Of a DNA stretch of 64,000 nt, positions 27,107-49,483 are shown piece by piece. The notes beneath the pieces were generated by a model. It did not search any database, had not been told where the DNA came from, and was given only the letters and a program-made list of their open reading frames with translations. The position numbers and the translations under genes were made by a program. Each line of letters starts with the position of its first letter. Position 1 is the first letter of the stretch. The DNA comes from Smithella sp. (GTDB taxonomy: Bacteria > Desulfobacterota > Syntrophia > Syntrophales > Smithellaceae), in contig JAGOMJ010000001.1 in the NCBI GenBank assembly GCA_017993615.1, forward strand, positions 25,425 to 89,424, in the 5' to 3' direction.

Positions 27107-27439
27107 TCAGTGGATATGCCGTTTAATCATATCGGCTAGTTTATCCTTCGAGGACAAACCGATCGACGTGTCCTTTACCGTTCCCCCTTTCATGACCAGC
27201 AGTGTCGGGATGCTTTTGATACCGAATTGACTCGCGGTTTGAGGATTGTCATCCACGTTAACCTTCACAATGTCTATCCGGTCGCCGTATTCTCCGGCCA
27301 GTTCCTCCAGAATCGGGCCGATCGCACGGCAAGGTCCGCACCACGGCGCCCAGAAATCCACTAAAACCAGCTTGTCATTTTTTAAAACGGTTTTTTCGAA
27401 ATCACCGTCACCGGCATGCTTGATGTCCTGCTTATTCAT
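27107..27439 (-). CDS. trxA: Thioredoxin
   Basis: 110 aa with WAPWCGPC active site. Confidence 0.93.
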   Translation of the reverse strand: MNKQDIKHAGDGDFEKTVLKNDKLVLVDFWAPWCGPCRAIGPILEELAGEYGDRIDIVKVNVDDNPQTASQFGIKSIPTLLVMKGGTVKDTSIGLSSKDKLADMIKRHIH

Positions 27440-39668: not shown

Positions 39669-40592
39669 CTATTTAGGCGTGACGTTGGCGTCGGCGTTTT
39701 TTGTAATCGGTGCCTGAGGATCCTGCATCCATTCCTGCATGGCGCCATCGTATAGACGGACGTTTTTATAGCCGAGGACTTCCACCAGAATATAAGACCA
39801 GATCGGGCAGCACTGACCGATGTCGCAATAGGTTATAATTTCTTTTTCCTTATCCCTGCCGATAGCGGCTTCGGAAATCGCCGCGAGTTCTTCCGTGGTT
39901 TTAAATGTTTTGTCAGGATTAAAGGCGCAGGAAGTCGGCATGTTAAAAGCTCCCGGGATTCGTCCCATCATGGGAATACAATCCATCTTTTTCTCGCCGG
40001 TAAAGAACTCTCGTTCTCTCACATCCAGCATAATAGCCTTGCCCAGCCGTTCTTTAACGTAATCTTTGTCGGCAAATCTCGCTCTTGAGTAGAGGCCTTT
40101 GAATGGTTTTGCTTTTGCGTGCATGATCTCCTGCGAAAGCGGTTTCTTTTCAGTAATCCATTTATTCATCCCGCCGTTAAGAACGGCTACATTTTTTATT
40201 CCTGCGTATTGCAGGGTGCAGGCGACACGGGCGCTTTGATAACTCAGCCGCGGCGTATCCATGCAACCGGTGACGACAATCCGCGAGTCAAACCCGATTC
40301 CGAAGTAGCCTATGGTATCATCCAGGTCATCCGTTTCGGGGATCTCCGTAAAAAGACCGTCTTTCTGGTATGCCCATGATCTGTAAAACGCGTTTAGCGC
40401 GCCGGGAATGTGTCCCTCTCGGTAATCCTCAACTCGGCGAACATCCAGGATAATCAATTTCGGATTCTTCAAATTTGCCAAAAGCCAGTCGGTGGATACA
40501 ATCGGCTCGATGTCACGGGTTTGACCGGCTATCGGCAATAAAAGGATAAAAAGAAGGATCGTAAGGAGCTTGGACAAAGCATGATTTTTCAT
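39669..40592 (-). CDS. Exported tandem-rhodanese sulfurtransferase (paralogue)
   Basis: Start MKNHALSK with AAGGAG 8 nt upstream. Signal peptide present. Active-site loop TYCDIGQCCP. Confidence 0.85.
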   Translation of the reverse strand: MKNHALSKLLTILLFILLLPIAGQTRDIEPIVSTDWLLANLKNPKLIILDVRRVEDYREGHIPGALNAFYRSWAYQKDGLFTEIPETDDLDDTIGYFGIGFDSRIVVTGCMDTPRLSYQSARVACTLQYAGIKNVAVLNGGMNKWITEKKPLSQEIMHAKAKPFKGLYSRARFADKDYVKERLGKAIMLDVREREFFTGEKKMDCIPMMGRIPGAFNMPTSCAFNPDKTFKTTEELAAISEAAIGRDKEKEIITYCDIGQCCPIWSYILVEVLGYKNVRLYDGAMQEWMQDPQAPITKNADANVTPK

Positions 40593-40725
40593 ATGGCAAT
40601 CTCCTTTGAATGTTGTATTACACATCTTAAAACGGATGTATACATAGTATACCACTAATTCTTTATTGAGACAGCCGAATATTTCAGACCGCAGAATACA
40701 AGCCCTATTTCATACTATTTTTATC

Positions 40726-41271
40726 TTACCGAATATGACGGTCTATTTCCCCCATCAGCGTCTGCGTCTGATCGGGCAACAGCGCGAATCCCATGTCATT
40801 CCTGTAAATGATGTTCATTTTTTTATCGACAATCACATACACGCGTTTGGAAAGGGGCAAAAGCCAGTGGTCGGCGTCGTAGAGCTTGGCGATTTTGCCT
40901 TTTTCATCCACCAGCAGAGTCATGTTTTTCAGGCTGTGCTTGGCTATAAACTTGCGGTGCGATTCGGCCGAATCCCGCGACAGGCCGAGAATTTTGATTT
41001 TTTTGGCTTTGTATTTTTTAATATTTTGTTGAAACTCAACAAACTGGCGGATTCAAAGCTTGGTGTCGTCTTTGGGATAGAAAGCCAGTACCACGGCGCG
41101 ATGATTTTTGACAGCATTGCTGAGTTTCCATATGTTGCCCTTTTGATCGGACAATGTAAAATCAGGGGCTACCTGGCCGGAAACCGGGGAGGCGTTTTTT
41201 GCCCCTGTTGAAGCACAGGCTGACAATATAAAGAACACCAGCACAAAAAAAACGAATTTTGTTATTCGCAT
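40726..41271 (-). CDS. Candidate Sec-containing BCP-like peroxiredoxin lipoprotein (U73 at the peroxidatic position)
   Basis: Track ORFs 41053-41328 and 40726-40923 are in one frame, joined by the TGA at 41053-41055: AFYPKDDTKL-U-IRQFVEF...ILGLSRDS. Lipobox ILSAC. GGAGGG RBS before MRITKF. Confidence 0.65.
41025..41043 (-). promoter_or_regulatory. SECIS-like hairpin
   Basis: RNA UUUGUUGA-GUU-UCAACAAA: perfect 8-bp stem starting at +13 from the U of UGA, with GU in the loop. Confidence 0.45.
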
Positions 41272-41339
41272 ATAGCCCTCCGATAAAGGTATGGACGGCG
41301 GGCGGTTCAAAAATAACCGCCCGCCCATCTTAGTAAAGA

Positions 41340-41951
41340 TTAATCGTCAAACGCCATTTTGGTTTTCCAAACTTCCCAGACCTTGCCTACCAGATCGGGG
41401 CCGGGTTTGAGCGTCGGCTTGCCGGGTTTCCAACCGGAGGGCGTGGCTTCGGCGCCTTTGGTTTTGCGCACGTGTTGGAAGGCCTGAATTTGACGGATGC
41501 TTTCCATGACGTTGCGTCCGACCGGCGGCGTCAACACTTCAAAGCCCTGAATGATGCCATCGGGGTCGATGATGAACCGGCCGCGGGCTTCCACGCCGGC
41601 ATCCTGAAGGTAAACGCCAAAGATGTCTCCGACCTTGCCGCCGCCGTCGGAGAGCATGGGGAAGGGGATGCCGCCTTTGACCATTTTGGAAAGTTCATGA
41701 TCATCCCACATTTTGTGGACAAAGACGCTGTCCACACTCATGGATAAAACTTCAACGCCGAGTTTTTTGAATTCGGGATATTTCTCGCCGACCGACGAGA
41801 TTTCGGTTGCTCAGACGAAGGTGAAGTCGCCCGGATAAAAACACAGGACAACCCATCTCCCCAGATAATCGGAGAGCTTCAGATTGATGAATTTCCCCTT
41901 GTGATACGCGGGCGCCGTGAAGTCCGGCGCTTTTTTCCCTACAGTGACCAT
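41340..41951 (-). CDS. Sec-containing AhpC/Prx1-type peroxiredoxin (U47 replaces the peroxidatic Cys)
   Basis: Track ORFs 41811-42065 and 41340-41741 are in one frame, joined by the TGA at 41811-41813: [23 protein letters not shown] lies before [11 protein letters not shown]. Confidence 0.8.
41783..41800 (-). promoter_or_regulatory. SECIS-like hairpin
   Basis: RNA UCUCGUC-GGUC-GGCGAGA: 7-bp stem and GGUC tetraloop at +21..+24, resembling the fdhF apical loop. Confidence 0.6.
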
Positions 41952-42085
41952 GCTTTTGACCTCCTTGACAGGTGTTGGTTGAGACGTTTCTTTCTTCGCA
42001 TCCGGTTTTTCGCCGACCGGTCCGCCGGTGGGTCTGGCACAGCCGGCCTTGATTTCTTCAGCCATAGATGATTCCCTCCTTTGTT

Positions 42086-42400
42086 TTATTTTTTTGATTT
42101 CTTCATTTTCGCGATTTCTTCCTCCACTTCCTCAGCGCCTTCCGCATAGAATTTTCCTTCATCGGGGGCCAGTTCATGAAGCAATCTTAAAAACTCTCCG
42201 GCGTGAACGCGTTCCTCGTCGGCAATGTCCCCGAGGACCTCGATGGCCAGCTTGTTGTCGGTTGATTCCGCGAGCTGCATATAAAGTTGGATGGCTTCAT
42301 ATTCTGCCGCCACCATAAAGCGAATGGCTCTGATCAGTTCTTCTTTGGTCAGTTTCCTGTCCTTCTTCAACCCTGAAAAAGGTGTTCCAAACTCCGGCAT
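42086..42400 (-). CDS. Small ferritin-like/rubrerythrin-family protein (EncFtn-like sequence, no encapsulin nearby)
   Basis: [10 protein letters not shown] ... [11 protein letters not shown] di-iron-type ExxH pattern. 20 nt upstream of the Prx gene. Confidence 0.65.
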
Positions 42401-42463
42401 GGTATCATCCCCCTTTCCTGTTATTATTATAGGTTAATTTCCTGATGCAGTAACGATAATTTA

Positions 42464-42484
42464 TGACATCATTTTGTGATGTCA
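42464..42484. promoter_or_regulatory. Inverted repeat TGACATCA-N5-TGATGTCA (candidate operator)
   Basis: Perfect 8-bp arms, 64-84 nt upstream of the ferritin-like ATG. No U-tract, so it is unlikely to be a terminator. Confidence 0.4.
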
Positions 42485-42509
42485 ATTTCTGCCCTTATTT
42501 TTTTGATAT

Positions 42510-44210
42510 TTACTTCTCCCTCGGGAACGGCCAAGCCATAATGCCGCCTTCCATCACTTTGACGTTTTTCCAGCCGTTGCCTTCCAGTGCCAGCGCCGCC
42601 TCATAACCGCGCAGTGAAATCTTGCAGTATAAGATGATTTCGCGATTTTTATCCTCCGGCAGCTCCTTGAGGCGCTTACGGATCGCGCCGAGCGGTATCA
42701 ACGTCTCACCGATGCCTAAACGCATCTCTTCGAATTCCTCCGGTCCGCGTGTATCAATCAGGAATGGTTTCTCTCCGGCCCGTATTTTATCATAAACCTC
42801 TTTACAACTGATACCTTTCATTCTGCCTTTCATTTTATTCTGCATGATGTGCGCCGTGGCGATAAAATGATCAATGGCCAGAGAGAAGGGCGGCGCGTAG
42901 GGAAGATCGGCGTTAATCAGGTCTTCCACGGTCATTTTCCCCTGAATGGCCATGGCCCACTGGGCAATTTGCTTGGCGACGTTTCCCGGACCGATGCATT
43001 GTGCGCCGAGGATACGGCCGGTTTTTTGCTCCGCCACCAGTTTAGTGACCAGAAGCTTGCCTTCCATAAAGCCCGGTTTGTCGGGACTGGCGTTGATGAC
43101 CGTTATGATGTCGGAATAGCCCAGGCGTTTGGCCATTGTTTCCGAAAGGCCGGTGGAGCCCGCCCCGTAATCGAACACTTTGCAGATGCCGGTTTGAATC
43201 GTTCCCGGGAAAGTGACGCTGTTGCCGGAAGCGGCGTTTTCTCCCGCTATTCTTCCCTGGAGATTGGCCAGATCGCCGTAAGGCGCGTGGACTTTTTTGC
43301 CGGTGATGCGGTTGAGGGTTTCCACGCAGTCGCCCACGGCGTAAATGTCCGGGTCGGAGGTCTGCATGTATTCATTGACTTCAACGCCGCCAAGCTCGCC
43401 GATTTTCAACCCGGCTTCTTTGGCCAGTGTGACGTTGGGACGGACACCGATGGCTATAACGGCCAGCTCGCAGGGAAGCTCCGTTCCGTTTTGCAGTTTC
43501 ACCGCTGTGAGTTTTCCGTTTTCACCCAGGAAAGCGGCTATGCCGTTTTCGGTGATGATGTTGGCGCCTTTGCTCCGCACATGGTTTTCCACCAGCTTGG
43601 CCAGTTCCCAGTCCAAAAACGTCAGCAGTTGAGGAAGCAGTTCAATGACGGTGATTTCAATACCCGCCAGTTGCAGCGCTTCGCAGGTTTCGATACCGAT
43701 GAGTCCGCCGCCGATGACCACGGCCTTTTTGATTTTGCCTTCATCGCGGACGTTACGCAGAAAATCGGCGTCCTTCATGGATTGTAATGTGGTAATGCCC
43801 TGGAGATCTGTGCCCGGAACCGGCGGCATTCGGGGAACGGCGCCGGTGGCGATAACGAGTTTGTCATACGTCAGGGTGCCGGTTTCTCCGGAAACCGTAT
43901 TTTTGAAGGAAACGGAACGGTTTTTCGTGTCGATGTTAGTGACTTCGGTGTTGACCTTCGCTTCGATATCTTTGGCGTTGAGGTAAAACATCGGATTGCG
44001 CACGACGCCCGCGGGCGTGCAAAGTAGCGCGTTGCGGTCGTTAAAAAAACCTCCGACGTAATACGGGTAGCCGCAGGACGCCATGGAAAGGTCGGCTTCC
44101 TTCTGGATAATGATCACTTCCGCGTCGTTGTCAATGCGCCGGGCTTTCGCCGCTGCTTTGGGACCGGCAGCCGAACCTCCGATAACAATGATTCGTTTTC
44201 TCTGAGCCAT
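42510..44210 (-). CDS. CoA-disulfide reductase / NADH-dependent persulfide reductase-like flavoprotein with C-terminal rhodanese domain
   Basis: GGSAAG FAD site, redox Cys in SMASCGYPYY, second Rossmann motif VVIGGGLIG, C-terminal rhodanese loop LYCKISLRG. Confidence 0.85.
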   Translation of the reverse strand: MAQRKRIIVIGGSAAGPKAAAKARRIDNDAEVIIIQKEADLSMASCGYPYYVGGFFNDRNALLCTPAGVVRNPMFYLNAKDIEAKVNTEVTNIDTKNRSVSFKNTVSGETGTLTYDKLVIATGAVPRMPPVPGTDLQGITTLQSMKDADFLRNVRDEGKIKKAVVIGGGLIGIETCEALQLAGIEITVIELLPQLLTFLDWELAKLVENHVRSKGANIITENGIAAFLGENGKLTAVKLQNGTELPCELAVIAIGVRPNVTLAKEAGLKIGELGGVEVNEYMQTSDPDIYAVGDCVETLNRITGKKVHAPYGDLANLQGRIAGENAASGNSVTFPGTIQTGICKVFDYGAGSTGLSETMAKRLGYSDIITVINASPDKPGFMEGKLLVTKLVAEQKTGRILGAQCIGPGNVAKQIAQWAMAIQGKMTVEDLINADLPYAPPFSLAIDHFIATAHIMQNKMKGRMKGISCKEVYDKIRAGEKPFLIDTRGPEEFEEMRLGIGETLIPLGAIRKRLKELPEDKNREIILYCKISLRGYEAALALEGNGWKNVKVMEGGIMAWPFPREK

Positions 44211-44312
44211 AGTTTTATCCTCCGATTTTTAAAAGTGACCTGAACATAAAAGGTCGCTTCCATAAATTTGATTCTCTCAGTGAAAAAATAGCAATTATCG
44301 GCAGCCGTTGCA

Positions 44313-44326
44313 TTGACTTAAATCAA
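44313..44326. promoter_or_regulatory. FNR/CRP-family box TTGAC-TTAA-ATCAA
   Basis: Extended palindrome GCATTGA-N6-TCAATGC, about 100 nt upstream of the 42510-44210 gene. Half-sites match the box at 27545. Confidence 0.5.
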
Positions 44327-44459
44327 TGCGGATAATTATTTTCAGAGTCCGTATATTTTGAGCCGGCCGGCATCAGACCTTATGGAACATACATGGCAAC
44401 GACCTCATCCGCAGCATAAATTACCCCGCCGGCGATTAGCTGTGATTTAATAATAACTT

Positions 44460-45653
44460 TTACGATGATGCGGGCGATATTTCAGCATCAACGTGCCTCA
44501 ACGGAAGCGTGGGATGTTTTATGAAAGCCCTGATGAAAAGGGGAATCCTTCGGGATAACGGTTTGGTGATCGTATCCCCGTAGGCTTTCAGCAACTCATC
44601 CGGCATGTAGTGAAGCTTTATTCCCGCAATTCTGTTGGTGAAGGAGAGCGTGATAAAACATCCGGGGCAGTTGACGGCCATATCTTTCATTCCGGTTTCC
44701 TTCACTTCTTTGTATTTTTTCCACTGTTCCTTGAAGAGACTTTTCGGAAGATTAAGGGTCCGGAGAACGCTCACGGCCCCGCAGGAAAGGTTGCACTCTC
44801 CATGATGGGGGAGTTCCACTATATCGGCGCCCGCTGATTTGTAAACGGCGCGAAGGTCGCGGGCAAAGCCGTCACCCAGTTCGCTGACATAACATGATTC
44901 ATGGAGGGTCGTCTTTAGTTTCAACGGTTGTTTTACTGTGATCTTGCCGGATTCTCTTTTTTCATTCAGCCATTCATACAGGGAAATCAATTTGAATGGC
45001 AATTCCCTGCCGTATACATTTTTCAGTATATTGGATAGATAGTTGTAGCAGGATCCGCAGTAGCAAACCATTCTCTCGATATTCAATTTCTCAAAAGCTT
45101 TCAGGGTTTTTTCAATCGTTTCGGTGTAGGCTTTCCATGAACCGAGACGGTATGCAAGCTCACCACAACAGAGATCCGGCGGCCCGAATTTCGGCAGTTC
45201 CTGTAAAACAGCGGAGTTTTCAATATCGAAACAACTTATTCTGCCGATGCATCCGACCCACAGAATTTCTTTTGAAGGCGGTGGAATTTCCGACCATTTT
45301 TTCAATATGGATTGTTCCTCCCTGGAAAGCATGGCATAAATATCCTTCCACATTGACATTTTCATGCCGTTGAAGAGATAGGGGTAGACAGCGGATATCT
45401 TTCCTTTCTTCTTCCTGTTCTCCATGAACTTCTCCAGAATAAATTCATGAAGTCTTAACCCCTCGGGGCAATAATTATTGCAACTGAAGCAGAACGTGCA
45501 TTCCCTGAAAATTTTTTCCGAGTAACCGGTTTTCAATAATCCGGTCATTTCAGCAACGGCCTCGGGCTTGTCCATGTGCATCACGGGACATTGGACAAGA
45601 CATTCACCGCACGTCGTACATTTATTCCAATCCGATAATTTGGCATATGACAT
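44460..45653 (-). CDS. HdrD/GlcF-like Fe-S protein (2x[4Fe-4S] + CCG domains)
   Basis: CTTCGECLVQCP and CTFCFSCNNYCP clusters, followed by Cys-rich CCG-type repeats (DLCCGE, CPGC). Confidence 0.75.
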   Translation of the reverse strand: MSYAKLSDWNKCTTCGECLVQCPVMHMDKPEAVAEMTGLLKTGYSEKIFRECTFCFSCNNYCPEGLRLHEFILEKFMENRKKKGKISAVYPYLFNGMKMSMWKDIYAMLSREEQSILKKWSEIPPPSKEILWVGCIGRISCFDIENSAVLQELPKFGPPDLCCGELAYRLGSWKAYTETIEKTLKAFEKLNIERMVCYCGSCYNYLSNILKNVYGRELPFKLISLYEWLNEKRESGKITVKQPLKLKTTLHESCYVSELGDGFARDLRAVYKSAGADIVELPHHGECNLSCGAVSVLRTLNLPKSLFKEQWKKYKEVKETGMKDMAVNCPGCFITLSFTNRIAGIKLHYMPDELLKAYGDTITKPLSRRIPLFIRAFIKHPTLPLRHVDAEISPASS

Positions 45654-45672
45654 AATACATGTTCCCCCTTTT

Positions 45673-46407
45673 CTATCTGAATTGACGAATAACCCATTCA
45701 AGTTTCTGGATACGCGCCGCAGACCATGCAAAAAATTTTTGCCAGAGCCCGGCGCTTTTTATCTCATGCGTCGAATGCGTGTTTCGATCTTCTTTGTGTG
45801 AGTGTAATTCTTTTAATAACGGCAGTAAATGCAGATTATTGCTCCGTTCATGGATAATGTGCCATACGCAATTTATTTGCGGATCGAGCGCGCATTTCAA
45901 GTTTGATTCTGAATAGGATTTGCAGGGGCCGTATTTGCTTTTTGCGGGACATTCGCTCAACGGACAGATTCCAGCGGTGCAGGTTAGCACGCAATGTCCG
46001 CAGCTTCTGCAGAGGCTATGTGCAATAACCGGATCGCTGCTGGAAACTGCGGCGCTTCCCACGGAATCCAGCACATTGATTACAGGCAAATCCGGCCGAC
46101 AGCTATTCGCTGATTTTATTCCCGCCGCGCAACTCAAAACGATCAATGCATCACACTTTTCGAGGGCCTTTTTGTTGGCCCTCAACGCCTGACGCATTAT
46201 TTCTTCGGGACAAGCGGCAAGAATGACTTTGTCCAGTTTGATCTGTTTGTGATTTTTCAGCAGATGCGCTTTCAGAACTTCCACGCCGGTCTTGCCGCCC
46301 GTGTAGGAAAGATTGGCGCATGTTCCACAACTCAGAATGCCGAATGTTTTATAATCTTTTAGTATGAGATTAATTTCCGGCTCCGGTTTCCAAATGGTTT
46401 TATTCAT
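45673..46407 (-). CDS. MTHFR_C-like (MetV-type) Cys-rich protein
   Basis: CRSCGHCVLTCTAGICPLSECPAKSKYGPC resembles the methylene-THF reductase C-terminal domain. Confidence 0.55.
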   Translation of the reverse strand: MNKTIWKPEPEINLILKDYKTFGILSCGTCANLSYTGGKTGVEVLKAHLLKNHKQIKLDKVILAACPEEIMRQALRANKKALEKCDALIVLSCAAGIKSANSCRPDLPVINVLDSVGSAAVSSSDPVIAHSLCRSCGHCVLTCTAGICPLSECPAKSKYGPCKSYSESNLKCALDPQINCVWHIIHERSNNLHLLPLLKELHSHKEDRNTHSTHEIKSAGLWQKFFAWSAARIQKLEWVIRQFR

Positions 46408-46462
46408 TGTTTACCGTATCCTGACTGTGAAAAGCGTATTGTATATCGGGGCTTGGGATCTG

Positions 46463-46945
46463 CTATTCTTTTAAATGGTCCGGCATCAGGGCTTCCGGCA
46501 CCTGAATGGCAACGACTTCGCCGGTGGCGCATATCTGGCCGCCGGCAATCAGCCTCGATTCGATAACGACTTTGCGCCTTTTGATCTCCTTGACTTTCCC
46601 CCGTATTTCTATCGGTCCGCCAAGCGGTGTGGGCAAAAGATAGTTTACGTGCAAAGAGGCGGTCAGAAAACGAATCGGCGGCAGGGTATCCATCTCGCGG
46701 TTTTCAGAGCAGTATTTGGCCGCCGCCGCTGTGCCAGTGGAATGGCAATCGATCAGCGACGCAATCAGACCGCCGTAAGCCATTCCGGGAATAGCCATGT
46801 AGCGGGGATCCGGTTGATAAACACAGACGGATTCTTCTCCGTCCCAGTAGCTTTTGATTTGCAGACCGTGTTCGTTGAGGCGACCGCAGCCGTAACAGTG
46901 GCTTAAATCGTCGGGATAGTAGTCCTGAAACGCTTTTTGCTTCAT
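46463..46945 (-). CDS. PaaI/hotdog-fold thioesterase
   Basis: CYGCG zinc-type N-terminus plus hotdog core (YGGLIASLIDCH). Confidence 0.7.
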   Translation of the reverse strand: MKQKAFQDYYPDDLSHCYGCGRLNEHGLQIKSYWDGEESVCVYQPDPRYMAIPGMAYGGLIASLIDCHSTGTAAAAKYCSENREMDTLPPIRFLTASLHVNYLLPTPLGGPIEIRGKVKEIKRRKVVIESRLIAGGQICATGEVVAIQVPEALMPDHLKE

Positions 46946-46978
46946 AAAAACCCCTTTTTTATACAAGAAATTTTATAT

Positions 46979-47233
46979 TTACAATCGAGAGGACAGAAAA
47001 GCATGCATTTTTTGCGCGTCTGTTGCAATATCAACATGCACGTGTTCATTGTCAAAGATGACATTGGTTGAACTTCTGAAATTATACGGCAATGCCTCGA
47101 CGGCATCGATTGTGTAAATTTTTACATCCAGAATGGTCTCAAATTTTGTTTTCATCTCTTCAGCTACACCTATAGCCTTCTTGCAGCTTATTCAGCCCGG
47201 ATTTCCGCTATGAAAAACCAGTAATGTCTTCAT
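46979..47233 (-). CDS. Candidate 84-aa thioredoxin-fold selenoprotein with UxxC motif (absent from the ORF track)
   Basis: MKTLLVFHSGNPG-U-ISCKKAIGVAEEMKTKF...; TGA at 47192-47194. Fills an otherwise empty 304-nt gap in a tightly packed operon. Layout resembles small Thioredoxin_3 proteins (GxGCxxC near the N-terminus). Confidence 0.55.
47163..47176 (-). promoter_or_regulatory. SECIS-like hairpin
   Basis: RNA GCUA-UAGGUG-UAGC with GGU in the loop (+25..+27). An outer AGCU/AGCU helix is also possible. Confidence 0.35.
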
Positions 47234-47249
47234 GATAGTCCCCTTTATG

Positions 47250-48200
47250 TTAATTAAATGTCAATTTTGTTCCGGCCATATTCAAAATAAATTGTTCGGG
47301 CATTTGCTTTTCCATCTCCATAATGGCTTTGCGTCCCGTGCAGTGTGTCGGAATGATATAAGCCGGGTTGATTTTCTTGAATTCCTGCGTGGTGCGATCA
47401 ATAATCGGTTCAAAAAACGGCCCGGATAGATGGAATCCGCCCATCACTGCGTGAATTTTATTAATACCGGTAACTTTCATCGCGTGATGAACCGTATTAA
47501 TGATTCCGGAATGCGCACAACCGGAAAGGATAATCAACCCTTTGTTTTTCAGATTCATGACAATAGAGGTGTCGTCTTCGATGGCATCCCAAACTTCCTT
47601 TCCGTCTTGCTGGCAATGAGGAAGCGGCCATCCCGTTTCGAAATCCGTGCTACGGGGAATTTCGCCCAGAAAAAGAATCGTATCTTCCAGTAAAAGATAT
47701 GGTTTTTCAGTTTCCACCACGGTGAGACCCGCGGCTTTAACCATTTCCCGCGTCAATTCCGGAAAATTGATTTTTAATTCCTCTCCGAATTTGAGATAAC
47801 GCGGCGATTTAAACGCGGACGGATGCACGGCGAAAGGGATATTCTTTTTACCGGTCATGGTGACGAGTTTTGCCATGCCACCCGTATGGTCACTATGTCC
47901 GTGGGAAAGAGCGGCTGCCTCGACCTGTGTCATATCAACGTTAAGCGTTTCCGCATTTTGCGCCGCACCGTTTTCCGAAAAACCGAAGTCAAGCAGCAGC
48001 GTATGCGTTTTGTTTCCGAGAGTTGTTTGGACGAGTGCGGAAAAACCGTGCTCAGCCAACACGGAAGCCCGGATTTCTCCTTCTTTTAAAGGATTGGCTC
48101 GCGTGACAACAGCGTTGCTGTCCATCGCGGTAATTTCAATGTAGTTATCCTGTAATGTCAGGATTTCAACCCTATCAACTGCTTTTAAAGCTGTTGTCAT
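47250..48200 (-). CDS. MBL-fold metallo-hydrolase (paralogue of 28293-29042)
   Basis: SHGHSDHTGG, GCAHSGI, GGFHL and HCTG motifs. Confidence 0.75.
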   Translation of the reverse strand: MTTALKAVDRVEILTLQDNYIEITAMDSNAVVTRANPLKEGEIRASVLAEHGFSALVQTTLGNKTHTLLLDFGFSENGAAQNAETLNVDMTQVEAAALSHGHSDHTGGMAKLVTMTGKKNIPFAVHPSAFKSPRYLKFGEELKINFPELTREMVKAAGLTVVETEKPYLLLEDTILFLGEIPRSTDFETGWPLPHCQQDGKEVWDAIEDDTSIVMNLKNKGLIILSGCAHSGIINTVHHAMKVTGINKIHAVMGGFHLSGPFFEPIIDRTTQEFKKINPAYIIPTHCTGRKAIMEMEKQMPEQFILNMAGTKLTFN

Positions 48201-48220
48201 GATACCAATCCTCCTTTGAT

Positions 48221-48559
48221 TTAGTGATCGCAGAGATTGTCTCCGACTTGCAATGAACCGGCAAAAAAATCCGTAATCAGTTTTTCCGGTGTTTCGACCG
48301 GAGCACCGACTACGACCTGAATGCCCTGCTCGGCAAACAACTGTTGGGCTCGTTGACCCATGCCGCCGGCAATAATCATATTAGCACCTTGTTTGGCCAG
48401 CCATGGCGGCAAAAGTCCCGGTTCATGAGGCGGCGCGGCAATGTCTTCACGTTTGATGATTTTTTTAGTTTGGTCTTCGATTTCGATGATAGCAAAACTC
48501 GCGCAGTGACCGAAATGCGCTGTAAGTTTTCCTTCGGCTAACGGTATGGCTATTTTCAT
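48221..48559 (-). CDS. NifX/NifB-C-like (dinitrogenase FeMo-cofactor-binding domain) protein
   Basis: MKIAIP...HFGHC...GGMG pattern typical of this family. Confidence 0.75.
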   Translation of the reverse strand: MKIAIPLAEGKLTAHFGHCASFAIIEIEDQTKKIIKREDIAAPPHEPGLLPPWLAKQGANMIIAGGMGQRAQQLFAEQGIQVVVGAPVETPEKLITDFFAGSLQVGDNLCDH

Positions 48560-48571
48560 GATTCATTCTCC

Positions 48572-49483
48572 TTATGAGTTTAATATTTTTGTCTTATCCA
48601 AGTCTTTTGTAATTTCATCAATGATTTTTTGCATGATTTCCCCTGTGGGCGTTTTCGATGAATGATAAATAAAAACCTTACCCGAGTCGCCGGACTGTGC
48701 GATTGCCGGATCCATGGGAATAGCGCCAAGAAAAGGCACATTCATGTCCGTTGAGATTTTCTTGCCGCCGCCGGTGGGCAGAATCTGTGTAATTTCACCG
48801 CATTTCGGACACGCAAAACCGCTCATGTTTTCGATGACGCCGACCACCGGTACGTCAAGACGCTTGCAAAAGCTGATAGATTTGCGCACGTCCACTGCGG
48901 CGACTTTCTGCGGTGTGGTGACAATAATTGCGCCGTCCAGCGGCTGAATCAACTGGCACAACGACAGGGGTTCATCACCTGTGCCCGGAGGAGCGTCAAC
49001 AATTAAGTAATCCAGATCGCCCCAATGCACATCCGTCAGGAATTGTTTGATAACACCCATTTTCATCGGACCGCGCCAGATGACAGCGTCATCGGGATTC
49101 TGCAACAAAAACCCCAGAGACATTATTTTCAGGCCACCGAATTCAACCGGAAACAATCCGTCGGGGCCGCCTTTGAGAGTTTCATTTTCCAGTCCCAGCA
49201 TGGTGGGTACGCTGGGACCGTGAATATCCACGTCCAGCAAACCGACTCGCAGACCGTTTAATGCCAGCGCGGTGGCCAGATTGACCGCAACGGTGCTTTT
49301 ACCGACGCCGCCCTTGCCGGAAAGCACGACGATTTTTTTCTGAATGCGGCAGAGCGTCGCCTGCAATTTGCGGCGATCAGCGTATTCTTCAGGACTTTCA
49401 TCCTTTTTCTGTTTTTTAGCCGCGCAGTCGGAATCGCCGCACGTATCACATGTTTTTTTTTCTTCCACTATTATATCCTCCAT
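48572..49483 (-). CDS. Mrp/NBP35/ApbC-family Fe-S cluster carrier ATPase
   Basis: Deviant Walker A SGKGGVGKST, CPKC motif and an N-terminal Cys-rich tail. Confidence 0.88.
   Translation of the reverse strand: MEDIIVEEKKTCDTCGDSDCAAKKQKKDESPEEYADRRKLQATLCRIQKKIVVLSGKGGVGKSTVAVNLATALALNGLRVGLLDVDIHGPSVPTMLGLENETLKGGPDGLFPVEFGGLKIMSLGFLLQNPDDAVIWRGPMKMGVIKQFLTDVHWGDLDYLIVDAPPGTGDEPLSLCQLIQPLDGAIIVTTPQKVAAVDVRKSISFCKRLDVPVVGVIENMSGFACPKCGEITQILPTGGGKKISTDMNVPFLGAIPMDPAIAQSGDSGKVFIYHSSKTPTGEIMQKIIDEITKDLDKTKILNS

Follow-up and report, generated by a model that had tools for sequence, protein, structure and literature searches.

Does the apparent gap between a gene for an MBL-fold hydrolase and a gene for a hotdog thioesterase, within the 64,000-nucleotide stretch of Smithella DNA analysed here (the window), hold a gene that is read through a UGA codon, and if it does, what kind of protein would it encode? 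The gap measures 304 nt, as an earlier reading made without database searches (the sequence-only reading) had reported, when it is taken from the end of the MBL gene at 47250 to the hotdog ATG at 46945, and 283 nt when it is taken to the listed TTG start of the hotdog gene at 46966. It looks empty because the standard ORF list holds only the 58-aa 3' part of the gene that lies in it (46979-47155). The accompanying statement that all gaps between neighbouring genes are below 35 nt was overstated, as there are others of 55 nt (46407-46463) and 249 nt (44210-44460).

On the minus strand, positions 46979-47233 form a single frame of 255 nt (84 codons and a TAA stop), which runs ATG (47233-47231) MKTLLVFHSGNPG-TGA(47194-47192)-ISCKKAIGVAEEMKTKFETILDVKIYTIDAVEALPYNFRSSTNVIFDNEHVHVDIATDAQKMHAFLSSRL-TAA(46981-46979) and contains just one in-frame TGA, at codon 14. 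The frame is borne out by reading of the sequence, and its translation is identical to that given by the sequence-only reading. The TGA (47192-47194, minus strand), the presumptive Sec codon U14, is kept in homologues and aligns with the nucleophilic Cys32 of thioredoxin. The G-U-I-S-C (UxxC) motif claimed for the protein is present as G13 U14 I15 S16 C17; Cys17, the resolving residue of this U-x-x-C centre, is encoded by TGC at 47183-47185, aligns with thioredoxin Cys35 and is Cys in every Sec form without exception. A Shine-Dalgarno-like AAGGGGA is found on the same strand at 47239-47245, 6 nt 5' of the ATG at 47233. Taken alone, such an observation in one sequence does not rise above chance level and it is the comparative evidence that decides; on that evidence, we are highly confident that this is a Sec-containing TsoX gene.

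Family membership is clear. With U replaced by C, the protein matches the NCBIfam model NF045809, ‘HSGNPxU motif (seleno)protein TsoX’ (PF26315 is the Pfam equivalent), with 126.1 bits against a cutoff of 52 and an E-value of 4.7e-37, residues 3-82 covering positions 2-81 of a profile 82 positions long. The window protein reads H8 S9 G10 N11 P12 G13 U14 I15 S16 C17 across the motif, and H-S-G-N-P-x-U is kept in the 12 Sec forms compared. The homologues are collinear with the window protein along its entire length, the precomputed annotation of every one of them is PF26315 TsoX, and the 58-aa public ORF also carries the tag PF26315:TsoX. At 50% identity, the family is a small one of 78 clusters in a set of 1.84 billion representatives, mostly truncated calls. 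Membership of Pfam Thioredoxin_3, the family to which the layout had first been likened, did not hold up, there being no match to PF13192 at E up to 10, and the Pfam scan returned Glrx-like PF05768 alone, below threshold (14.5 bits, cutoff 26), in a copy of Pfam older than PF26315. The MJ0307-family thioredoxin model (TIGR00411) was likewise rejected, at 13.2 bits against a cutoff of 92.75. Other small UxxC/CxxC selenoprotein families resemble TsoX in their small size, in database calls that are cut at the UGA and in a distant similarity to MJ0307, but they are different families: NF047660 reaches 13.7 bits against a cutoff of 105 and NF040730 is absent among the matches.

Judged by these matches, the gene belongs to a family that has been published and modelled before, and is not of a new kind. 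A 2026 review (PMC13188914) credits TsoX to Haft & Tolstoy 2025 (mSystems 10:e0141724); the family takes its name from a position beside the three-selenoprotein operon TsoA/TsoB/TsoC. Novelty is therefore low, the family having been published in 2025, and the picture of bacterial selenoproteomes is unchanged by the find. Our literature search yielded just unrelated uses of the name TsoX, and in the literature covered, where the 2026 review is the source on the family, there is no experimental evidence for it. The window protein shares with the family the full-length match above cutoff, the HSGNPxU motif, the UxxC centre, a single Sec, a length of about 84 residues and a host that is a deltaproteobacterial-type anaerobe. 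It differs in setting, as the gene lies here between MBL-fold and hotdog thioesterase genes in an ORP-like Fe-S/redox array. Neither the TsoA motif (LULAxC) nor the TsoC motif (NEPxGxxU) occurs in the six frames of the 64-kb window with TGA read as U. TsoB in the Tso system is a rhodanese/DsbD protein with a UxxxxU motif, and matches to this motif in the window are confined to non-coding frames; among ten neighbour genes there is no match to the models NF045695 (TsoA), NF045694 (TsoB) or NF045708 (TsoC). As the window holds no TsoA or TsoC motif, the protein is filed as TsoX and the locus is not filed as a Tso system, the window-wide test being motif-based and the operon possibly sitting elsewhere in the genome.

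What would such a protein look like? A structure was modelled with AF2, from an alignment of 15 sequences, for a full-length homologue (P0001) that is 75% identical and carries W at the Sec position. The model (pLDDT 94.3, pTM 0.83) has the topology b1(2-8) a1(15-30) b2(35-41) a2(45-50) b3(56-60) b4(63-65) a3(73-83), a b-a-b-a-b-b-a fold in which helix 1 bears the redox pair at its N-terminus. The best 50 Foldseek matches in the PDB are overwhelmingly thioredoxins or fusions and complexes that contain thioredoxin, with E-values from 4e-4, TM scores of 0.60-0.73 and a probability of 1.00. Similarity to thioredoxins by sequence comparison is not significant (E 0.076-1.1), the best match being 1nho, the small thioredoxin MTH895. 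Of the claim that the gene encodes a thioredoxin-fold protein, therefore, the fold and the placement of UxxC at the N-terminus of helix 1 stood, in the AF2 model and the Foldseek comparison, and the assignment to the Thioredoxin_3 family fell.

The profile alignment is collinear with thioredoxin. With Cys17 aligned to Cys35, Sec14 falls at the position of the attacking Cys32, and Y-N-F-R-S-S-T stands opposite Y-G-I-R-G-I-P-T, an alignment (YNFRS-ST/YGIRGIPT) that puts an invariant Ser55 in place of the cis-proline, opposite Pro76. The cis-Pro loop is a hallmark of redox-active thioredoxin-fold proteins. Its counterpart in TsoX begins with codons 51-56 (N-F-R-S-S-T; 47066-47083, minus strand), where F52, S55 and T56 are invariant across homologues and R53 and S54 nearly so, and it continues as the invariant S55 T56 N57 V58, with no proline. 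As modelled, TsoX thus counts as a thioredoxin in its fold and in where its active site lies, yet as an atypical one that is without the cis-Pro hallmark. It resembles the MJ0307/MTH895 small thioredoxins (PF13192, TIGR00411, 1nho), which are also about 85 residues long, have the minimal b-a-b-a-b-b-a fold and carry a redox pair straight after strand 1, where helix 1 begins; TsoX differs from them in having Sec for the first Cys, HSGNPx instead of G-x-G or W, Ser for the cis-Pro and no significant sequence similarity. With the E. coli TrxA-type thioredoxin (WCGPC) it shares the fold and the use of the Cys32/Cys35 positions, here U14/C17, and the fusions of its relatives to thioredoxin reductase (TrxR) imply a common reductase, whereas it is without the N-terminal b-a extension, is without cis-Pro76 and has Sec. 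The window also has, at 27107-27439 on the minus strand, a separate gene for a WCGPC thioredoxin of the canonical kind.

These fusions bear on function. In three relatives (P0080, P0084 and P0089) the TsoX domain is joined to a TrxR-like flavoprotein, and the one that was scanned, P0084, exceeds the cutoff of the thioredoxin-disulfide reductase model TIGR01292 (343.45 bits) with a score of 369.6 bits. In the DNA of a fusion locus, L015, the frame extends upstream as MFKTVVRLTVVHSGDPN-U-KPC-E-MALD, so that the fused TsoX domain carries HSGDPN-U-KPC; thus extended, the domain scores 106.8 bits on NF045809. Since the frame continues upstream through U, the TrxR fusion would itself be a Sec protein clipped by the gene caller. 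By the Rosetta-stone argument TsoX would be fed electrons by a TrxR-type enzyme, as thioredoxin is, and the fusions of relatives suggest a thioredoxin-like role.

The product of the window gene would then have the minimal thioredoxin topology b1-a1-b2-a2-b3-b4-a3, helix 1 starting at U14-I-S-C17 and Sec taking the position of the attacking Cys32. It probably acts as a thioredoxin-like electron carrier that cycles between a selenol/thiol form and an intramolecular selenenylsulfide, being reduced by a TrxR-type flavoprotein and passing the electrons on to partner proteins; both the reductase and the targets are putative. We consider it probable that a real TsoX selenoprotein gene, with a likely thioredoxin-like electron carrier as its product, is the best explanation of the locus. 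For the selenol/thiol electron-carrier mechanism itself we lean only moderately in favour. The confident thioredoxin fold, the Sec at the attacking position, the loss of the cis-Pro and the fusions to TrxR and to an ArsM-type domain may be useful for a first biochemistry of TsoX.

The alternative that survives best accepts a real TsoX selenoprotein and differs over what it does. It may be a binder or carrier of metals, metalloids or chalcogens rather than a disulfide reductant, its cargo being for example As, Hg, Cu, Mo, Se, persulfide sulfur or an Fe-S cluster, and its ligands Sec14, Cys17 and perhaps His8. The cis-Pro loop of thiol-disulfide oxidoreductases is, as described, replaced by an invariant polar loop (Ser-Ser-Thr-Asn), and His8 of the HSGNPxU motif is invariant; both would suit such a role. 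A comparable case has been made by the authors of the family name, who proposed heavy-metal roles for other small UxxC/CU selenoproteins such as SaoT (bioRxiv 10.1101/2022.07.06.499078). One relative (P0070) combines the TsoX domain with an ArsM-type arsenite methyltransferase domain. ArsM enzymes also require a disulfide reductant, so this fusion is compatible with either reading. In another relative (P0048, 92.5 bits) the U and C positions are occupied by Ser and Tyr, which suits neither role well.

The surroundings of the window gene also bear on this alternative. On the same strand, TsoX is preceded by genes for a sigma-54 activator, a NifX-like protein, a radical SAM protein, a DVU_1556-type methyltransferase, a MinD/Fer4 protein, a NifU-like protein, MrpORP, a second NifX-like protein and the MBL-fold hydrolase, and is followed by hotdog, DUF5981, CCG protein, CoADR-rhodanese, rubrerythrin-like, PrxU, second peroxiredoxin-like and rhodanese genes. 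The NifU-like, MrpORP, NifX-like, MinD/Fer4 and CoADR-rhodanese neighbours suggest trafficking of metalloclusters or sulfur. The neighbourhood, however, is not conserved beyond close relatives: the order MBL-TsoX-hotdog is shared with the close relative L008 only, and what distant loci have in common is limited to ABC ATPases of a generic kind and a single hotdog gene at a distance of 2.5 kb. As no neighbour is conserved across distant loci, gene context does not fix the partner of TsoX; in the window it is suggestive, yet not conserved. Fusion to a genuine thioredoxin reductase, on the other hand, points to electron transfer, and a role as binder or carrier is in our view unlikely.

A related idea, which we also regard as rather doubtful, is that TsoX represents a distinct design of Sec active site built on a thioredoxin scaffold, in which His8-x5-Sec14-x2-Cys17 faces the invariant R-S-S-T-N loop and may handle a persulfide, selenide, metalloid or metallocluster intermediate. 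Were this so, the protein could be tied to the ORP-like Fe-S/NifX/Mrp array and to the CoADR-rhodanese and PrxU genes around it, and the TsoX-TrxR and TsoX-ArsM fusions that contain Sec would point to the physiological source of its electrons and to one sink for them.

The electron-carrier reading and these alternatives all take the UGA to be decoded, and for this the comparison of homologous genes provides evidence. TGA stands at the identical codon in 12 of 12 genes for Sec forms, namely the window gene, six loci from GTDB species representatives and five metagenome contigs. The six GTDB loci are from Syntrophorhabdus, Geobacteraceae, Desulfarculia, Desulfococcaceae, Desulfobacteraceae and an unclassified proteobacterial MAG, and all of them read M-x-E-L-x-V-F-H-S-G-N-P-x in frame 5' of the TGA. 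Gene callers gave W at the Sec column to four of the five metagenome homologues, the DNA being TGA in all. In one further gene (P0041/L013) the column holds TGT, the peptide reading HSGSPT-C-TSC and scoring 110 bits on NF045809, which by alignment forms a classical Sec/Cys pair with the TGA genes. Homologues thus align through the UGA, as 12 Sec forms and one Cys form, and the frame is conserved with the synonymous pattern expected of a translated one. Over codons 6-12 (V-F-H-S-G-N-P), pairwise codon differences among seven full-length genes are synonymous in 66 cases and non-synonymous in 11, so that the peptide 5' of the ‘stop’ is under purifying selection; selection is purifying on both sides of the UGA.

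Each of the full-length homologues examined carries AGGAGG, AAGGAG or GGAG as a Shine-Dalgarno sequence at the corresponding place 5' of the upstream ATG. Many also have an ATG directly 3' of the TGA, which explains the database entries of 70-72 aa. Such an internal start fails as a model for the window gene and for L008, L016, L017 and L018, as residue 15 has no start codon there (ATA in the window, GTA in L008, CAG in L016, CGG in L017 and GTA in L018), and for the same reason Cys17 would be lost from any internally started product of those five genes.

The sequence-only reading had also pointed to a hairpin with GGU in its loop 3' of the UGA, and this is present at 47177-47162 as GGCUAU-AGGU-GUAGCU, a candidate upper hairpin of a bacterial SECIS (bSECIS) with 6 bp and a 4-nt loop, AGGU, that is the consensus fold of the 12 genes. 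The rules for a bSECIS call for an apical loop of 3-9 nt, an upper stem of 4-16 bp, a G in the first two loop positions, a distance from UGA to loop of 16-37 nt and an MFE of -7.5 kcal/mol or lower (PMC13188914). The window hairpin starts 14 nt 3' of the UGA, has 20 nt from UGA to loop and a G at loop position 2, and so agrees with the rules for loop, stem and spacing. Its energy is borderline against the rule of -7.5 kcal/mol, with -4.5 for the core, -7.3 for 51 nt (an alternative fold) and -8.7 for 66 nt; homologues mostly lie between -9 and -13 kcal/mol (range -5.6 to -13.0). The single-sequence fold of the 66 nt of the window is no better than that of shuffled sequences (z = 0.09). Being thermodynamically unremarkable alone, the hairpin acquires significance only via comparison with homologues. 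There, a SECIS-like hairpin stands at a conserved offset in the 12 Sec forms, always in columns 18-33 after the UGA and always with a loop AGGY. A scan of 40000-49000 with Rfam gave no model matching the hairpin, and the sub-threshold matches to CRISPR-DR53 and SAM-Chlorobi in that region are taken as chance. A lower helix, which RNAfold draws for several homologues between columns 7-10 and 40-43, is paired in just 64.6% and was rejected.

Pairing in the upper stem is kept in 98.6% of cells, and four of its six pairs never vary. The variable ones change from G-C to G-U in the window, where the hairpin is closed by this G-U pair, and in compensatory fashion from U-A to C-G in L017; in L016 the stem is three pairs longer through the coupled changes K19L and E25N. 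Formal covariation is weak, as it consists of one event and shuffled alignments reach its score in 61 of 500 trials. The codons are more informative. Ala20 (GCT), Ile21 (the rare ATA) and Val23 (GTA) each use one codon in the first seven genes compared, and among all 12 genes L017 alone departs at codons 20, 21 and 23, with its compensatory pair, whereas other invariant residues with 3- to 6-fold degeneracy use 3-4 codons. To judge from these genes, the freezing of synonymous sites is a stronger signal of the hairpin than covariation is. The codons for A-I-G-V-A (GCN AUH GGN GUN GCN) are, however, palindromic and force four of the six pairs, so that constraints on RNA and on protein are confounded and not fully separable. 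The Cys form L013 shows synonymous changes in four of the five AIGVA codons and its stem still pairs (C-G), for which reason it is no clean control for a relaxed constraint (n = 1).

Translation would accordingly start at the ATG at 47233, Sec would be inserted at the UGA at 47194-47192, presumably with the in-frame hairpin at 47177-47162 acting as bSECIS for SelB and Sec-tRNA, and translation would end at the TAA at 46979.

Against this Sec-containing gene may be set the reading in which the UGA does end translation, the product being the 58-aa ORF from Met27 (46979-47155) and the 13 upstream codons a leader peptide or untranslated. This is what every public call of the exact sequence amounts to, and it accords with a hairpin that is statistically unremarkable alone, but of the confidently predicted fold the 58-aa product would miss strand b1 and half of helix a1, along with the U/C centre. 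Moreover, the upstream VFHSGNP is kept, its changes being mostly synonymous, 12 lineages have the TGA at one and the same codon where another has a Cys codon, and a Shine-Dalgarno sequence precedes the upstream ATG; a true stop is thus very improbable. Least credible of all, and effectively refuted already, are a pseudogene formed by nonsense mutation of a thioredoxin-like gene and a UGA read as Trp or Gly, for which some callers’ W or G at the Sec position of homologues might speak, since the same ‘mutation’ would recur in 12 divergent lineages above an intact downstream frame, and since 20 of the 66 long ORFs in the window end at TGA in the usual way, which indicates a standard code with recoding at a specific site.

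Does the organism use Sec at all? The 64-kb window has no tRNA and no signature motifs of SelA, SelB or SelD. It does have two further genes that appear to be UGA-recoded, both about 5 kb from TsoX. One (41340-42065, minus strand) encodes a PrxU peroxiredoxin that scores 416 bits on NF040737 (cutoff 270); its TGA (41813-41811) takes the place of the peroxidatic Cys, and a clean hairpin lies 13 nt 3' of it. The other, at 40726-41271 on the same strand, encodes a BCP/PrxQ-like lipoprotein, is interrupted by UGA and reads AFYPKDDTKL-U-IRQ. An NCBI MAG record gives PrxU 241 residues and the second peroxiredoxin-like protein 181, which are the read-through lengths, and other callers split both. Given these two genes, the host most likely decodes Sec. 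The automatic filter for read-through ORFs misses TsoX itself and so is no sure guide to how many selenoprotein genes the window contains. The case also confirms that a UGA-recoded gene missed by automatic pipelines can be picked up by reading the letters alone.

The exact sequence of the gene occurs in the NCBI MAGs GCA_035380885.1 and GCA_035410385.1 and in JGI metagenomes. In these public records the 58-aa fragment is called everywhere, and this fragment of TsoX lacks the active site. RNA and DNA runs that hold the exact sequence come from biogas fermenters, anaerobic digesters and sludge. A scan for promoters and terminators gave counts within chance, with none between the MBL, TsoX and hotdog genes, and the gaps of 16 nt and about 33 nt that separate these genes fit their co-transcription. 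Metatranscriptome coverage is thin; one contig (47148-47298) spans the 3' end of the MBL gene, the ATG, the UGA and the hairpin.

TsoX domains also occur joined to other enzymes. On a contig of ENA assembly ERZ24794671 (L015, positions 180-1424), and likewise in two homologous proteins from the representative search (P0080 and P0089), a Sec-containing TsoX domain is fused to a TrxR-type flavoprotein. In the L015 protein the TsoX domain, with the motif VVHSGDPN-U-KPC, is N-terminal and is followed by a genuine thioredoxin-disulfide reductase scoring above the TIGR01292 cutoff; the gene caller had placed the start 3' of the UGA. This is a natural fusion of a thioredoxin-like protein to a thioredoxin reductase, and the thioredoxin-like half is a selenoprotein. 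A different fusion from the representative search, P0070 (269 aa), joins a TsoX domain to an ArsM-type arsenite methyltransferase domain resembling those of the ArsM/AhpD and ArsM/DUF2284 selenoprotein families (~268 bits against these models, below their full-length cutoffs). Its annotated start, too, probably lies after a putative unrecognised UGA.

In one family member, P0048 (103 aa, 92.5 bits), Sec is replaced by Ser and Cys by Tyr (FHSENFA-S-IS-Y). This redox-dead variant fits poorly with a reductase role and also with a metal-binding one.

TsoX is not the only selenoprotein gene of the window to have been hidden. A PrxU-type peroxiredoxin gene at 41340-42065 (-) is a second; it scores 416 bits on NF040737, where the cutoff is 270. 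Its TGA at 41813-41811 (-) is in the position of the peroxidatic Cys, and a hairpin with a GGUC loop lies 13 nt downstream of the UGA. Some callers break the gene into pieces of 84 and 133 aa; NCBI's MAG record gives 241 aa. The BCP/PrxQ-like gene at 40726-41271 (-) is a third candidate. Here too the TGA (41055-41053) stands where the peroxidatic Cys would be (AFYPKDDTKL-U-IRQ). The family scores are under their cutoffs (PrxQ, 68 bits), and at -5.9 kcal/mol the hairpin is a weak one. The protein carries a lipoprotein-type signal peptide, and NCBI's record has a 181-aa read-through product.

In public records that carry this exact sequence (NCBI GCA_035380885.1 and GCA_035410385.1; JGI 3300010351 and 3300029440; L009-L012), TsoX is annotated solely as a 58-aa fragment (PF26315). 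The NCBI record with this fragment nevertheless reads through the neighbouring peroxiredoxin genes, so selenoprotein correction within it is uneven.

The window also encodes a canonical WCGPC thioredoxin (27107-27439, -), and TsoX therefore supplements the housekeeping thioredoxin rather than replacing it. Elsewhere, the MrpORP model (NF041136, 365 positions) is spread over two adjoining genes at 48221-49483 (-), one for an Mrp/ApbC ATPase and one for a NifX-like protein with a Nitro_FeMo-Co domain. The ATPase gene (48572-49483, -) covers positions 2-256 of the profile, the NifX-like gene (48221-48559, -) positions 265-364. Taken with the genes for NifU-like, MinD/Fer4 and sigma-54 activator proteins, this arrangement resembles a Desulfovibrio-type ORP cluster.
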